48,363 nucleotides of DNA from Laspinema sp. D2d (lineage in GTDB: Bacteria > Cyanobacteriota > Cyanobacteriia > Cyanobacteriales > Laspinemataceae): contig NZ_JAMXFC010000004.1 of the NCBI RefSeq assembly GCF_025370755.1, positions 209,505-257,867 of the forward strand, given 5' to 3'. A program made the translations under genes and the position numbers. The notes under the pieces are model-generated. The model had not been told where the DNA came from. It did not search any database and saw only the letters and a list, made by a program, of their open reading frames with translations. Positions 5,436 to 48,363 of the stretch are shown in pieces (the stretch's first letter is position 1; the number at the start of each line of letters is the position of its first letter).

Positions 5436-6719
5436 TTAATGGTTAGATGGCTCTAAATTTAAACGCTTCCCCTCCAATTCCCAAGTTGTGATTGCAGGTT
5501 GAGTTTGAGCGATTAATCGGCCTCGCACCATGACATATCTCACCGGAGGCCGACGGCGTAAAACCTCAAATTTACTATCCGCTTGCCAGATAATTAAATT
5601 GGCCGGTTTGCCAATTTCTAAACCATAATTATCTTCAATTTGTAAGGTTTTTGCGCCGTGAGTGGTAACCATATCATAACAGGCATTGATTTCCTCAATT
5701 CCAGTCATCTGGCAAACATGAAGCGCCATGTAAGCCACATCCAGCATATTTCCGGTCCCTAAACTGTACCAGGGGTCCTGAATACAGTCCTGGCCTAAAG
5801 AGACATTTAAACCGTTTTGCCATAATTCTTTGACTCGGGTGATGCCCCGTCGTTTGGGATAAGTATCGGTGCGTCCTTGGAGAGTAATATTAATTAAAGG
5901 ATTCGCCACAAAGTTAATCTGCGATCGCCTCAAAAATCCCATCAATTTATTCGCATAAGCGTTATTATAAGACCCAAAAGCTGTCGTATGAGAAGCCGTG
6001 ACTCGCTCACCGAGGCCACTGCGAATGGCACAAGCGGCTACCACTTCCAGAAAGCGCGACTGGTCATCATCTATTTCATCGCAGTGAATATCAATCAGTC
6101 GCTCATACTGTTGCGCCAGTTCAAAGATCCGATGCACCGATCGCACTCCATCCTCCCGGGTCAATTCATAGTGGGGAATCCCACCCACCACATCCGCACC
6201 CAGTTTTAATGCTTCTTCCAGCAATTCTGCCGTCTGGACCTCTCCGTAAATCCCATCTTGGGGAAATGCGACCACTTGCAAGGTCATACAGTCTTGAATC
6301 GCCTCTCTCACTTCTAACAGGGTCTGTAATGCCGTGAGGTCTGGCGTACTCACATCAACATGAGTACGAACGAATAACACCCCCTGGGATGCCAATTGTT
6401 TCAAGGTTGCCATCGCCCGTTGCTTGACATCCGCCCGGGTCAATTGGGGCTTACGTTCCCCCCAAATTTGAATTCCCTCAAATAACGTACCGCTTTGATT
6501 GTACCGGGGTTCTCCGGCAGTTAAGGCAGAATCTAAATGAATGTGAGATTCAACCAACGGAGGACTAACCAAGTGACCCTGAACATTCAGTTCACGAGGG
6601 GCCTCTCTGGGAAGTTGGGGGGCGATCGCTGCGATCCGCCCCTCTTCCACCTGAATATCCACCTGTTCCCCAGTGAGTAAGCGACAGTCTCGCAAGATTA
6701 AGCGATCGCCCTCTATCAT
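5436..6719 (-). CDS. codA: Cytosine deaminase-type amidohydrolase (CodA-like)
   Basis: The segment SHIHLDSALTAGEPRYNQSGTLFEGIQIWGERK ... HCDEIDDDQSRF ... TASHTTA ... PKRRGITRVKEL matches the metal-binding HxH/H/D architecture and long blocks of enterobacterial CodA as I remember it. Confidence 0.85.
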   Translation of the reverse strand: MIEGDRLILRDCRLLTGEQVDIQVEEGRIAAIAPQLPREAPRELNVQGHLVSPPLVESHIHLDSALTAGEPRYNQSGTLFEGIQIWGERKPQLTRADVKQRAMATLKQLASQGVLFVRTHVDVSTPDLTALQTLLEVREAIQDCMTLQVVAFPQDGIYGEVQTAELLEEALKLGADVVGGIPHYELTREDGVRSVHRIFELAQQYERLIDIHCDEIDDDQSRFLEVVAACAIRSGLGERVTASHTTAFGSYNNAYANKLMGFLRRSQINFVANPLINITLQGRTDTYPKRRGITRVKELWQNGLNVSLGQDCIQDPWYSLGTGNMLDVAYMALHVCQMTGIEEINACYDMVTTHGAKTLQIEDNYGLEIGKPANLIIWQADSKFEVLRRRPPVRYVMVRGRLIAQTQPAITTWELEGKRLNLEPSNH

Positions 6720-10685: not shown

Positions 10686-11009
10686 TTAATGGGCAAGAAC
10701 CGGGATGCTCTTGAGTTCAGCCGTCAACCGGCTCAACATGGACCGCTGACGTTTTGCCCCTTTGACTTGCCGATCCATCATCAGACGGCGCGCTTGTTCC
10801 GGTGTCGAGGGATTTGCGGACTGCGGTTCACCAGTGGTCAACGCAACGCCCCGATACTTCAGTTCCACGGTTGCTTGTTGAACCGGCGCTTTCTTCTGAT
10901 TGCAAAATTTCCAATCTAACCCGCGATATTTACCAGCCAGTTCGCCTTCGGTAACATCAACTTCGGCGGGAGTATATTCGTAAGTGGTGCCACGATATGA
11001 AAGTTTCAT
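10686..11009 (-). CDS. DUF4278-family small protein
   Basis: The N-terminus MKLSYRGTTYEY is the hallmark of cyanobacterial DUF4278 proteins. A GGAGG RBS sits upstream. Confidence 0.75.
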   Translation of the reverse strand: MKLSYRGTTYEYTPAEVDVTEGELAGKYRGLDWKFCNQKKAPVQQATVELKYRGVALTTGEPQSANPSTPEQARRLMMDRQVKGAKRQRSMLSRLTAELKSIPVLAH

Positions 11010-11454
11010 GTTTTTCGCCTCCTAAATAGAGTCTTGTTTGTAGGTTGAGGCGCGTTCCTTCGGGAGTGACTCCCTACTTCCGTCCCTTGCCAGTTTCATG
11101 CCGTTCAGAGATGAACTGGCTTGTGGTTAGGGATGAACGATTTACTTTCTGTATTCATTGTTACCGTTTGAAACTGAAATGTCAAGAGTTTTTCAATTTT
11201 TTTTGACAAAATACCTCTTAAGGCATAGGGTGAACTCTATTGACTAAGCTGAAACATCTGTAGGGTGGGCATTTGGGAGGTTTTGGAGAGCCTTTACCCC
11301 CACCCCGGAGGTTTTCAGAGACTCCGACCCCCACGAAACCCTCCTGACTGCAACCGGGTCATCTGCCTTCATCAGAGTAGGGGGATTGCAAAGCAAGCCC
11401 CTGTTCCGGGTAATCTCAAGCCTTGACATGATTCAACAGAGGAGAAACCTGATC

Positions 11455-13093: not shown

Positions 13094-13188
13094 CGCTTCT
13101 CGCAAGCTGCTTCCCACTCCCGGACTATCTACTGCAAAGGCGAGTTGCAAATGATGACCCCCGCTCCGATGAGCGGGTTGAGGGTCTT

Positions 13189-13371
13189 CTATCTGGAATA
13201 TCTGCGTTTGCGTCGGCGTGCGATTTCTTTGCGCTTACGCTTTTCTAGGGGAGTTTCAAAGTGACGCTGACGCTTCATATCTGCATAAATTCCCTCTTTT
13301 GCAACTTGACGCTTAAAGCGGCGTAGTGCAGATTCGATCGCTTCATTTTCGCCGACAACGACTTGAGTCAT
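13189..13371 (-). CDS. rpsU: 30S ribosomal protein S21
   Basis: [29 protein letters not shown]...[14 protein letters not shown] is the classical S21 sequence. Confidence 0.95.
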
Positions 13372-14375
13372 CCGGTATCCTCCTGAGTATCAACAATAAG
13401 ATGGGCGGGTGAAATATGCTCTACCCCAACTCGGGTAAGCTTGATATCCCAGTCACGGAAATAGCTGATGGGGGCGGTCCTCCCCTGTCGAGCCGTTTGC
13501 GAGGGTGGGGTTCACAATCGAAGGCTCGGAGATAGGAGCACAAAGCTGTCCCATCGCGCTTTGTCCGAAACTGGCTATCTGTTATGAATTGGCTTTAAAA
13601 CCCGATAGTGTTTGTTGGCTTGTCTGTATCGCAACAAACACGACAATCAAACTTTATCTGCGAAATATATTTTAACACAGAATGCCTCGGGTTCAGGAAA
13701 AATCCTTGATTGCCAGTCCTTAGCTCATGCGATCGCCGCTTGCTCAATTGTTCTCTCCCCTTAAGGTGAGTGCAAGGGGGCGATCGCCTCACGCATTCAG
13801 AGAAATCGGATTGTAACATGAGAATGGGGATGAGGTTTCCTTTGGTGTTTCTCTAATTCGGAAAACCTTGGGGTTCTGCACAGCCGGGGTCCCGGGGAGG
13901 AGCCTCTAGGGAGGGTTTAAATAGAGGTTGCTGGAGGGGGCAGGACCTGGTTTTAACGGGATAGCCCAGAGGAGGATTCTTTACCCTATCCCGGATTGGG
14001 AGCAATTTCCGTTCAGGTGGGGGATGAGGAGCCTCGGCTGGTTTTTCCAACCTTGGGGCGAGGGATTCAAGGCTCATGGGAGAGGCGATCGCGTCCCTTT
14101 ATTAAAAAATATCAAAACAATGGCCCGTTTTCATATTTTCTGTTTAAAACTCGTAAAATTAATATAAATACTTTGAGGTTGAGTAATTGATAAGTAAATT
14201 AACCTGTAACACCTAGAATAACCGCCCCAGGGCAAGGGGGTAATGTTGGGTATTCTTGACTAAAAATTTTCGGGGCAGGAGTTAGCTCAGTCAGTTGAGC
14301 GGCAGTTTAGGTAAATTACCGGCTCTGGGGAGCCCCGATTAAAATTAATATGCTAATCAAAGGTAGAATTCAGCA

Positions 14376-19723: not shown

Positions 19724-19851
19724 AATATTTTTGCTAAGAGGAGAGAGTCAGGGGCTATTGAGACAAAACCCCGTAGGTGGGTTTGAACTTACGGGGTGAT
19801 AAGGAATACAGGAGGTTAATCCGGGGAGAATCAGTGTTCCAAAAACGGATT

Positions 19852-20088
19852 CTAAGCGATCGCTTTTTCTAGGTACGGTTCTATCAGGGTCTCTGTCAGC
19901 AATTGCTGATCAAGTTCGCCCAGTTGTGTGGCAACTCCATCCCAACTACACAGGTTTTCTACTCGTTCTCGGGATGCTTCTTTGAGGCGATCGCCCCAGG
20001 TGGGATTGGACAGAATCCGATCAATCGCTTCAGCAAATGCCGCATCCTCTTGGGGTGGACAGAGTAATCCTGTTTCTTCGGCTTTCAC
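19852..20088 (-). pseudogene. C-terminal remnant of a GT4-type glycosyltransferase (78 codons, no upstream body)
   Basis: The translation LLCPPQEDAAFAEAIDRILSNPTWGDRLKEASRERVENLCSWDGVA resembles the C-terminal tail of GT-B glycosyltransferases (consensus from memory: L-V-P-P-x-D-x-x-A-L-A-x-A-I-x-x-L-L ... R-E-R-V-x-x-x-F-S-W). The upstream frame hits a stop within 15 codons. Confidence 0.45.
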
Positions 20089-20745
20089 AGTAAAGCACGA
20101 GTCACACCGACCCCCATAGCGGCGATTAACTTATACTTAACTGCCCCCAAAGAGTGGTAAACGTGAACTGACTTCCCCCCTTGTTGTTTCTTGAGTTCCC
20201 TTCCCACCGCGAGCGATCGCGGGTTTTACTTTGATCATACTGGATTGAGTAGCAACACCCCTTGTACTCGGATTAAAGCTCACATTCTTCCGTCCCGGGT
20301 TAACGTGAGAGAAAATATCCCATCTTGCCAGACAGATACGCCACTTTTAACCGTTACTTAGGGTAAACCCTCTAATCTTTGCGGCTAGATTAACGTTGCT
20401 GTTCATCATCCAACCGACTGAAGAGGTCGGGCGAGTTGAGTCGGGTGACTCACTTTCGATGAGAAGTTTCAGGGGACCCGCAGCAGTCATCTCCAATCCC
20501 TAACTCTCTCAGATGGAGGGGAAAATAGATGCGCAACCGGGTAACAGATTGGAAACCCAGCCTGGAGATACTGGGGACCCAACTCCTCCCGATTTAACCG
20601 TTACGTTAGGTGACCCCAATTACCTTTGGTCCACCTCGCGTCAAATCAATGGCATATTCTAAGTCAGTGAAACCCTTACCTAGACACTATTGAGGGCAAC
20701 TAAATCGGGGAGTGGGTTTCAGTTCTATCCAGTTTTTTTAAAAAA

Positions 20746-20801
20746 TTGCAAAATTCCTGGCAAAAGGTCTTTTCAGACCGAAAAAAACCTGCTATGATGT
20801 C
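20746..20801 (+). promoter_or_regulatory. Putative sigma70-type promoter for tRNA-Ser (-10 TATGAT at about 20795-20800)
   Basis: The extended -10 box gcTATGATg lies about 14 nt before the tRNA 5' end. The -35 is weaker (TTCAGA or TTGCAA). Confidence 0.4.
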
Positions 20802-20813
20802 TCAAGACACCTT

Positions 20814-20902
20814 GGAGAGGTGGCTGAGTGGTTGAAAGCGGCAGATTGCTAATCTGTTTTACGGTTTTAATCGTAACGAGGGTTCGAATCCCTCCCTCTC
20901 CG
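20814..20902 (+). tRNA. tRNA-Ser (anticodon GCU), class II with long variable arm
   Basis: GGAGAGG acceptor paired with CCTCTCC, D-loop AGUGGUUGAAAGC, anticodon loop uuGCUaa, long extra arm, T-arm GAGGGTTCGAATCCCTC, discriminator G. CCA is not encoded. Confidence 0.9.
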
Positions 20903-21016
20903 TTGTGAAAGCACTAAGGCTCCGATAAAACTCACCTGAGTTAATGATCGGCAACTCTGAGCAGATCTCAGCAAATGCTGGAGTTGAATGAGTCAGTGTA
21001 GAGCAATTTAGTTTAG

Positions 21017-21057
21017 AAATCCCCCACCCCTTGCAAAAGTCGTGGGGGATTTTTTAT
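21017..21057. terminator. Bidirectional hairpin terminator between tRNA-Ser (+) and the convergent minus-strand gene
   Basis: AAATCCCCCAC-(13 nt)-GTGGGGGATTTTTTAT. A/T runs on both sides. Confidence 0.7.
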
Positions 21058-21083
21058 GGTGGTTGGGTTCCCTGGAGCGATCG

Positions 21084-35416: not shown

Positions 35417-35425
35417 AAGAGGCCA

Positions 35426-35497
35426 AAAACCACAGGCGATCGCCTCAATATCCCGGTGAATGTAGGGGGTTTTAAAGAGGCGATCGCCTGTGGTTTT
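35426..35497 (+). terminator. Long HIP1-containing inverted repeat (CCACAGGCGATCGCCTC ... GAGGCGATCGCCTGTGG) downstream of nadK
   Basis: 17-bp arms separated by about 30 nt, followed by TTTTAAA. Each arm is also self-palindromic around GGCGATCGCC. Confidence 0.5.
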
Positions 35498-36232
35498 AAA
35501 TACTTGCCACTCATTTTTTCAAAAGTTTGCACCGCCGGAAAATCTCTCCCAGAATCTTTAAAATGACTCTGGTTCATGACCTCGGCGGTTTCAACCGTTT
35601 TAATCCAGAATGTCCGATGGAACTTGCAACATTAAGGATGAAGAATAACCCGAAATTTCCCTCTAAGTGGGAGTCGCTGTGCCCAATTGATTGATTGTGC
35701 TTTTGACGCGCTTTTGCCGATTAAGAGGAGACCCCCCACTGGGGCGATCGCAGCCGGTGATTGTCCGTTCGGGGCCTCCTCTTAATTTTTCTGTTCCGAG
35801 GCGATCGCTAAGGATAAGGGTGAACAGACGAGTTCGGGGTGGCACCCGCTGGGGTCACTACAAACTGGAGGCACCTCATAATCACATAACGTTAAGGGTT
35901 GAGATTTAATTTGTACTGCCGCTATTAGGGTGGCAGATAAACCCATGATGCTAATCCAAAACAGCCGGTTCATAAACAGTTCACTCCATAGCAGATGACT
36001 GCCTGTTTATTCGGCTGCTGTAGAGCCATTTCCGAAGGAAGCGATCGTCTTAATTTCCAGAATCTACTCCGGCTGTCCTCACCCTGGATCCAAACTGGGC
36101 TGTGCCAACAAAACTGGATTCTGTATTTTAAGCTACAGCACCTCTTGGCAAGGGTAATTATATTAAATTGCTAACAGACTTAATAGAATTACATAGGCCA
36201 GTCGGTCTTTTTAGTAAAGGGATATAAAAGGC

Positions 36233-36273
36233 AATCCCGCCAGACTTCATTCTGGCGGGATTGTTGTTTTTTG
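36233..36273 (+). terminator. Orphan rho-independent terminator (AATCCCGCCAGA-CTTCAT-TCTGGCGGGATT-GTTGTTTTTTG) with no upstream ORF; candidate sRNA 3' end
   Basis: A perfect 12-bp stem plus a U-run, inside a 1.5-kb ORF-free region. Confidence 0.7.
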
Positions 36274-36996
36274 CGGGGGAGTTAAATTCAGGAACCCAGT
36301 TTTTGCAAAAGTCCAGGATTCACAGATGCATTGTTCTGGACTCTCACAGAATTATTCCCTATTTTGTGTCAGTCAGGAACCCCTACATGGAGAAAGTAAC
36401 TCGGCTGTAGCAAAATCTTCTCAAACCTATTCCTTACGGGGCAAAACACGAGCGATCGCTTATTTTCTAGCAAGCCCTCCGAGTCTGTTAATGTAGAACG
36501 ACTCAGGGATCTTCTATACAAGACTTCTGGCAAAATCGAGCTGCCCTCTCTCTCGGTCAAAATGATTGAAAGTCTCTATAAATGATCCCCGGTAAGCCCA
36601 ACCCCTGATCTTCAGAAAACGGTCACAACAACGGGTAGATTAATTTTCCAAATTTGGGAACTTTCCGGATATAAATTCTATCAATAATTGGCTTCTAACG
36701 GGGAATAATGTCAAACTCACAGGATTCAGCTCCCCTCAGCACGTAGATAATAGAATGTAGGGAATCAATATATCCTAAAATCTAAAGGGGAATCCGCCTG
36801 AACGAGAGGACCAAGGGAGATTTAAATCTCAGGGGTCCCAACAGACTGGAACCCACCCCTACACCGTTAGGGCAACCGATGAAGGATCGGCTCCCTTATA
36901 GGGGTAATTTAGAGTTGAGAGTTGTCGAGTAGCAATGGGTATTTTTTTTTACTATATTTTCCTATCCCCTCAATGAGTACAGACCCCCATACTATG

Positions 36997-48242: not shown

Positions 48243-48363
48243 TTTTGCCGCTTGACTTTGACCTGTTCCTAATGTACCAGCCCGTAAGGGATAGAGTCGA
48301 GGGGAATGTTACCATTCCACCCCTCTCTTCCGAAACCGTGCGTGCGATTTTCACCGCACACGG

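Follow-up and report, generated by a model that had tools for sequence, protein, structure and literature searches.

A candidate NtcA-type small RNA gene and a divergent 63-codon reading frame between nadK and a DUF6272 gene in Laspinema sp. D2d

In a 48,363-bp stretch of the genome of Laspinema sp. D2d (the window, whose coordinates are used throughout), the tract from the nadK stop (35416) to the next long open reading frame (ORF; 36922), that is positions 35417-36921, carries a short conserved unit at 36122-36273. We propose, with somewhat better than even confidence, that this unit specifies an independently transcribed, intrinsically terminated small RNA (sRNA) of about 100 nt, which would be switched on by NtcA under nitrogen limitation and would act in trans. 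Its transcription, start site, NtcA dependence, trans action and targets are what we infer from sequence features and their conservation. Together with a conserved 63-aa ORF on the minus strand, the tract is most likely made up of two divergent small transcription units and a spacer. The elements of the predicted sRNA gene are as follows.

36122-36137, plus strand: NtcA-type box TGTA-N8-TACA (TGTATTTTAAGCTACA), with the core GTA at 36123-36125 and TAC at 36134-36136.
36159-36164, plus strand: putative -10 element TATATT (TAN3T), exactly 22 nt 3' of the box.
36171-36273, plus strand: candidate sRNA of about 103 nt, the predicted start lying 41.5 nt from the box centre and the end at the last T of the T-run.
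36195-36208, plus strand: conserved 5-bp hairpin (A)GGCC-N4-GGUC(U) with a G-U/A-U exchange, followed by U5.
36230-36273, plus strand: intrinsic terminator with a 15-bp stem, a 6-nt loop, GUUG and U6.

The terminator had been noticed in a first-pass annotation made from the sequence alone, which described a perfect stem with a U-run at 36233-36273. This is confirmed, with a perfect stem measured as 13 bp (36232-36244/36251-36263), extending to 15 bp with G-U pairs (36230-36265) and including eight G-C pairs, and with T6 at 36268-36273; the terminator is conserved in nine genomes. It is also an orphan, as had been stated, because nadK has a terminator hairpin of its own (35426-35497), so that no plus-strand gene ends upstream of 36230-36273. 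The region 36171-36275 has a minimum free energy z-score of -4.4, and the predicted fold consists of an AU-rich single-stranded 5' part, the 5-bp hairpin with U5, an A-rich linker and the terminator hairpin. A sliding scan that took in both strands of the entire tract flagged only 36150-36319 (structure conservation index, SCI, 0.77-0.85; z-scores -3.9 to -5.9), and neither 35500-35720 nor 36600-36920 showed a further conserved structure in an RNAz-like scan. Between 97.7 and 98.1% of the cells are paired, the only exchanges in the stems being among G-U, A-U and G-C, and the loops vary; in the terminator, the stems are invariant and the loop is variable. The plus strand fits these exchanges best. 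A G-U pair of the 5-bp hairpin is replaced by A-U in two chromosomal copies and in the two plasmid copies described below, where reading the minus strand would give most copies an A-C mismatch; the two basal G-U pairs of the terminator and the plasmid C-to-U changes likewise pair on the plus strand only, and the U-run is longer and better conserved on that strand.

The predicted promoter is the second line of evidence. The GTA-N8-TAC core and AATTATATT are invariant in 9/9 genomes that keep the RNA, as is the N8 of the box (TTTTAAGC). The full motif, GTA-N8-TAC followed after 21-23 nt by TA-N3-T, occurs once in the 48,363 bp, both strands considered, at 36122-36164; 0.25 occurrences would be expected by chance, or 0.095 with the 22-nt spacer. 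NtcA-activated promoters carry GTAN8TAC centred at -41.5 (PMC5714215), and the nsiR4 promoter has a 22-nt spacing between the NtcA box and the -10 element (PMC8491059). The geometry of the putative box and -10 element at 36122-36164 matches this canonical NtcA-activated promoter architecture.

For the assessment of conservation, the tract was aligned with eight to ten syntenic loci of the Laspinema clade, and the four-fold degenerate sites of nadK served as the neutral yardstick (identity 0.71-0.75 for close species and 0.51 for L009, the most distant relative). No other non-coding part of the tract is as well conserved as promoter and RNA, which show 83-98% identity compared with 51-75% at the nadK four-fold sites: 36111-36164, covering the box and the -10 element, reaches 0.91-0.98 in close species and 0.83 in L009, and 36165-36273, covering the RNA, 0.83-0.90 and 0.83, respectively. 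The unit contains no conserved start codon or ORF, its frames are interrupted and codon periodicity is absent; a tiny ORF inside the RNA (TTG at 36168, 19 codons) was rejected on account of its non-conserved start codon. Searching the window against Rfam 15 at gathering thresholds yielded no hit in the tract, either to riboswitches or to the cyanobacterial Yfr, NsiR and 6S models that had been thought of at first, and the best matches of a permissive scan of the tract were terminator-only Bacillus/Listeria sRNA models with 22-27 bits at thresholds of 49-60. A short, conserved, structured and non-coding unit with promoter-like elements of its own is what the earlier suggestion of an independently terminated sRNA ending at this terminator would lead one to expect, and that suggestion is supported.

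Based on these features, we propose the following hypothetical sequence of events, in which (i) 2-oxoglutarate-activated NtcA would bind, under nitrogen limitation, to the box at 36122-36137, centred 41.5 nt 5' of the start; (ii) bound NtcA would recruit RNA polymerase to the -10 element; (iii) transcription would begin near 36171 and stop at the terminator, yielding the RNA of about 103 nt; and (iv) this RNA would most likely base-pair in trans through its invariant single-stranded stretches CUUAAUAGAAUUA, UCUUUUUAG and AUAUAAAA.

The description of the tract as gene-free does not hold, a conserved 63-aa ORF being present on the minus strand. The remaining features are listed here.

35426-35497, strand not assigned: HIP1-containing hairpin with 21-bp perfect arms, directly 3' of the nadK stop.
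35501-35719, minus strand: weakly constrained spacer, presumably the 3' untranslated region (UTR) of the small ORF.
35720-35786, strand not assigned: second hairpin with arms 35720-35735 and 35771-35786 (15/16 paired), followed by T5 at 35787-35791.
35782-35973, minus strand: conserved 63-aa ORF, open in relatives, with a coding substitution pattern and annotated homologues.
35974-36121, minus strand: conserved non-coding stretch upstream of the small ORF, probably its 5' UTR and promoter.
36274-36600, strand not assigned: indel-rich variable spacer, with conservation at or under the neutral level.
36601-36972, plus strand: moderately conserved region 5' of the DUF6272 gene, presumably its promoter and 5' UTR.

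The small ORF is, judged by its pattern of substitution, a protein-coding gene. The frame stays open in each of the ten relatives possessing this region, with identities of about 0.90 in close species and 0.77 in L009, and substitutions fall on the three codon positions as 28/31/102 when counted pairwise and as 25/17/49 when counted per column (p = 1e-4). GGAG lies 10 nt 5' of its ATG. The predicted product (MNRLFWISIMGLSATLIAAVQIKSQPLTLCDYEVPPVCSDPSGCHPELVCSPLSLAIASEQKN) combines a hydrophobic, signal-like N-terminus with four conserved cysteines in the arrangement C-x7-C-x5-C-x5-C and looks like a clade-restricted exported or membrane-anchored peptide. Homologues are annotated as hypothetical proteins in Laspinema olomoucense and Oscillatoria acuminata; the protein belongs to no Pfam family, and a profile search of 1.84 billion representatives recovered only its own cluster and repeat-protein artefacts, with no credible distant homologue. 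The non-coding stretch upstream is conserved as well (35974-36110, identity 0.80-0.90, L009 0.67). On the minus strand, TAAAAT can be read within the NtcA box and a perfect TATAAT stands at 36163-36158; these hexamers and the invariant N8 suggest that the NtcA box and a promoter of the small ORF may overlap divergently. Two plus-strand ORFs in this part of the tract were rejected. The ORF at 35995-36174 gave coding-like pairwise counts (52/40/99), but stops interrupt it in 5/7 relatives and its codon periodicity was not significant when each column was counted once (p = 0.19); the 72-aa ORF at 35691-35909, with a TTG start, is intact in 1/7 relatives and shows substitutions of 57/117/75 by codon position.

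The transcript of the small ORF, running from 35973 through 35782, would probably end at the hairpin next to nadK, which it would share with that gene. This hairpin (35426-35497; -46.8 kcal/mol, fold z-score -8.1), not mentioned in the first-pass annotation, lies between an A-run and a T-run, and an equivalent A-run/stem/T-run arrangement is found in every relative, which makes it a probable bidirectional terminator for nadK on the plus strand and the small-ORF transcript on the minus strand. Its sequence (35417-35500) has an identity of 0.73-0.83 in close species and 0.49 in L009 and, by comparison with the four-fold sites, changes at close to the neutral rate. Between hairpin and small ORF, 35501-35719 shows identities of 0.76-0.85 (L009 0.66), compared with neutral values of 0.71-0.75 (L009 0.51), and neither a conserved ORF nor a conserved fold was found there in the alignment of the relatives.

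It had further been proposed that a long-stem hairpin with a T-run at about 35708-35795 terminates a second sRNA, so that a gene-free tract would hold two independent sRNAs ending at 35795 and 36273. We regard this fuller version as highly improbable. Both hairpins with their T-runs are present in the window and fold better than shuffled sequence, the one at 35720-35786 with a z-score of -4.45. However, the long stem of the latter is specific to this genome (SCI 0.18): most relatives have a 43-nt insertion inside it, the closest relative (L035) has a mutated arm, and no relative has a stem closing just before the T-run at this site. The hairpin overlaps the stop of the small ORF, whose stop codon is the TTA of the right arm, and the T-run is the other strand of the last codons and stop of that ORF (AAA AAT TAA), that is, minus-strand coding sequence. 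In addition, no conserved plus-strand promoter-like element or fold was found 5' of it. The hairpin exists, but it is unconserved and its T-run is coding, and we therefore rejected it as an sRNA terminator; conservation across 35.5-36.9 kb, which had been put forward as a test of the original proposal, separates the promoter and RNA, conserved above the neutral rate, from this hairpin.

A covariance model of the candidate RNA (R1) scored 115-132 bits in nine orthologue genomes and gave no match next to nadK in some 70 further cyanobacteria. Pattern scans gave 30 chance matches in metagenomes, all of at most 23 bits, and 6 chance matches in IMG/VR, and phage BLAST gave none. Homologues were found in the Laspinema/Oscillatoria acuminata clade only, together with two plasmid paralogues in O. 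acuminata PCC 6304. Within the clade, two close relatives with nadK 98% identical (L006 and L007) have neither the small ORF nor the RNA. In them, window positions 35490-36590 are replaced by roughly 380 nt of sequence that is unrelated (L006 7002-7295, L007 1481-1861), and the small ORF with the candidate sRNA therefore behaves as a 1.1-kb presence/absence module. Phormidium pseudopriestleyi FRX01 (L003) has suffered a 700-bp deletion at 6566-6650, equivalent to window positions 36214-36915, which takes out the 3' half of the RNA with its terminator, together with the variable spacer and what is presumed to be the promoter of DUF6272. In this genome the box has degenerated to GCA..TAC, and the DUF6272 gene now lies close 3' of this decayed NtcA-type promoter, an arrangement that may represent a natural promoter swap.

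The plasmid paralogues, detected by BLAST, cover the 3' two-thirds of the RNA and occur on both O. acuminata PCC 6304 plasmids, pOSCIL6304.01 and pOSCIL6304.02, with R1 scores of 68.8 and 66.8 bits. A 255-bp block, 77% identical between the plasmids (L113 2312-2566, NC_019700.1; L114 2317-2567, NC_019694.1), has these paralogues at its 3' end; it is the sole similarity between the two 5-kb loci, and its end coincides exactly with the sRNA-like terminator. In L113 (pOSCIL6304.01) it carries no annotation, and in L114 (pOSCIL6304.02) it is overlapped by two short hypothetical-protein coding sequences; the neighbouring genes differ, being DUF5906 and HNH-like on one plasmid and ParA and DUF6794 on the other. 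A -10-like hexamer, TAGATT, lies 5' of each plasmid copy at a similar hexamer-to-terminator length.

Several observations weigh against an NtcA-dependent, trans-acting sRNA. The module is dispensable, as L006 and L007 lack it and L003 has it in truncated form, and the plasmid copies have no NtcA box and only weak U-runs. Among the nine chromosomal orthologues there are no compensatory double changes, so the structure rests on thermodynamics and conservation, and the two compensatory changes that appear when the plasmid copies are added come from a model-fitted alignment. Start site and NtcA dependence are read from sequence motifs, and the invariant N8 with the minus-strand TATAAT means that the conservation could in part serve the divergent promoter of the small ORF. 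Finally, no target was found in the window, where neither RNAduplex on translation-initiation regions nor k-mer complementarity gave anything above shuffled controls.

The last but one of these points can be taken further, with all of 36113-36273 understood not as an RNA gene but as the region that controls the divergent small ORF from upstream; the box would then be an operator lying over a minus-strand -10 element (TAAAAT, or the TATAAT at 36163-36158), and the hairpin would shield the small ORF against read-through arriving on the minus strand from the right. We consider this unlikely. NtcA binding alone does not require an invariant N8 (PMC5714215), -10-like hexamers do lie on the minus strand both inside the box and at 36163-36158, the hairpin scores as a minus-strand terminator too, and small ORF and block co-occur in the same genomes. 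Such a control region would, however, leave the 83-90% identity of 36165-36231, between the -10 element and the hairpin, unexplained. The G-U pairs of the stems become mismatches on the minus strand, the U-run is of higher quality and more strongly conserved on the plus strand, and the plasmid paralogues retain hairpin, linker and terminator with no small ORF nearby. The candidate minus-strand -35 element (TTGCCA), moreover, is not conserved in L009 or L081. That the unit is instead a functionless remnant of plasmid-derived or mobile DNA, conserved through recent common ancestry only, is in our view very unlikely indeed. The position of the paralogues at the end of a block common to two O. acuminata plasmids and the presence or absence of the small-ORF/RNA module among close relatives would fit such an origin, but identity exceeds that of the adjacent gene's four-fold sites by a wide margin in every comparison (0.83 vs 0.51 in the most distant one), stem positions are invariant where loops vary, the window holds neither terminal repeats nor a second copy, and no phage or IMG/VR homologues were found.

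We also considered that the unit could be the long leader of the DUF6272 gene, in which transcription from the NtcA-type promoter would as a rule end at 36273, with expression of the gene, some 700 nt downstream, depending on conditional read-through. Unit and gene have the same orientation, and the deletion in L003 (36214-36915) brings the promoter-proximal part to about 60-80 nt 5' of the start of the retained gene. This reading nevertheless appears very unlikely, as the approximately 700 nt between terminator and gene include a 330-nt unconserved, indel-filled stretch and a separately conserved promoter-like region with TAGAAT at about 36750-36765. An anti-terminator pairing GGGAU/AUCCC was tried and rejected, GGGAU being lost in L004, L005 and L009, and no other conserved anti-terminator pairing or Rfam riboswitch or leader match was found; in L007, furthermore, both the gene and the region 5' of it are kept but the unit is not present. 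We therefore retain the NtcA-type sRNA gene as the preferred interpretation of 36122-36273.

Downstream of the terminator, the variable spacer has no repeat elsewhere in the window. Its equivalents in L004, L005 and L007 (corresponding to 36280-36600) have in common a short element, GGGACTAGAAA.C.GGTTTCT.GCCGAATGGGTT.CTAA.GG, which is partly duplicated within the spacer and absent from the window, and which may belong to a small repeat family. The 85-aa gene called 3' of the terminator in L082 is matched neither in the window nor in any other relative. Nearer to the DUF6272 gene, whose start is at 36973 or 36994, 36601-36920 is identical to about 0.8-0.88 in close species and to about 0.6 in L009, and 36601-36972 gave no strong conserved fold and no Rfam match.

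The order of genes around the tract, ndhG-ndhE-nadK, tract, GHKL-like DUF6272 gene and GHL10-like gene, is the same in the relatives, and the nadK product has 99-100% identity with those of Laspinema palackyanum, L. olomoucense and related metagenome-assembled genomes. HIP1 palindromes (GCGATCGC) are common across the sequence. The longest ORFs found mechanically in the tract have 72 and 63 aa; the earlier statement that no ORF of at least 70 aa is present fails marginally with the 72-aa frame, but stands in so far as no convincing long ORF exists. Similarly, the tract is the longest ORF-free gap of the window, as its description as unusual would suggest, but this was overstated: two other gaps of more than 1.2 kb (13094-14375 and 19724-21083) are without any ORF of at least 100 aa, so that long stretches free of ORFs are no rarity in this genome. 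The second of these gaps contains an 89-nt tRNA (20814-20902). Elsewhere in the window, a glutamine riboswitch (Rfam RF01739, 53 bits) lies at 11049-11141 on the minus strand, directly 5' of a DUF4278 ORF (10686-11009, minus strand), and is a second nitrogen-control element of the window, 25 kb from the candidate sRNA. Since DUF4278 is the family to which the glutamine-synthetase inactivating factors IF7 and IF17 belong, riboswitch and ORF would constitute a gifB-like arrangement. A group II intron domain match (RF00029, 50.4 bits; 48291-48363, minus strand) is cut by the window end.

If confirmed, a lineage-specific, NtcA-dependent sRNA would join the nitrogen-control network of little-studied, mat-forming filamentous cyanobacteria; our searches found no sRNA literature on the Laspinema/O. 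acuminata group. Confirmation would also mean that such genes are detectable from sequence alone, by the combination of an orphan terminator, a canonical NtcA promoter and conservation over the synonymous-site rate. No general concept is changed thereby, as NtcA-regulated sRNAs and small unannotated ORFs are to be expected in cyanobacterial intergenic regions. The plasmid paralogues provide a natural comparison between scaffold and seed. In the 255-bp block, the homology to the chromosomal RNA comprises small hairpin and U5, linker and terminator, whereas the plasmid copies differ in their 5' single-stranded part, have TAGATT in place of an NtcA-type promoter and weak U-runs, and lie among unrelated genes. 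A more far-reaching possibility, which we consider quite unlikely, is an undescribed RNA family with a reusable 3' scaffold, common to the plasmid copies, and a differing 5' part, of which this RNA would be the member that is chromosomal and NtcA-controlled. Through the chromosomal copy, functions related to the plasmids, or else the secreted cysteine-rich peptide encoded nearby, would be linked to nitrogen status, and the single box would act as a switch, activating the RNA promoter and occluding the overlapping, divergent promoter of the small ORF.

The arrangement of a small ORF with a hydrophobic N-terminus and a divergent short RNA gene about 200 nt upstream resembles type I toxin-antitoxin pairs such as tisB/istR-1 and zorO/orzO. 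In contrast to these, the small protein has a conserved cysteine-rich, probably extracytoplasmic part and is not a bare membrane helix, and the promoter of the candidate RNA looks nitrogen-regulated. Between 36165-36273 and 35700-36120 there is no direct repeat or complementarity, the duplex energy of -25.9 being weaker than the shuffled-seed mean of -31.3, and we therefore do not consider the two a type I toxin-antitoxin pair. The closest parallel is NsiR4, likewise a short sRNA gene that stands alone, with 22 nt between its NtcA box and a TAN3T -10 element (PMC8491059, PMC5714215) and with a stretch that is single-stranded ahead of a terminator hairpin. In sequence, the candidate shows no likeness to the 44-nt 5' portion of Synechocystis NsiR4, a partial sequence rebuilt from published primers (local alignment score 14 vs 12.2 +/- 1.9 for shuffles, 119/500 shuffles being as good). 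It also differs in its additional 5-bp hairpin, in the absence from 36165-36275 of a CACCUCC-like anti-Shine-Dalgarno seed, with which NsiR4 pairs with the gifA, pirA, glpX and pgk leaders, and in the absence of a gifA-like or other target match within the window. NsiR4 is widespread, whereas the candidate was found in the Laspinema clade only, in searches beside nadK in about 70 cyanobacteria and in a pattern scan of metagenomes. NsiR3, NsiR7, Syr6 and Ncr1071 are further non-coding transcripts whose promoters are bound or activated by NtcA (PMC5714215, PMC4734099). Compared by description only, they fall into the same regulatory class as the candidate, but have been described from Synechocystis or Nostocales and not from Laspinema. 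By sequence, the candidate RNA is a new family, but the NtcA-type sRNA is a kind that is already known.

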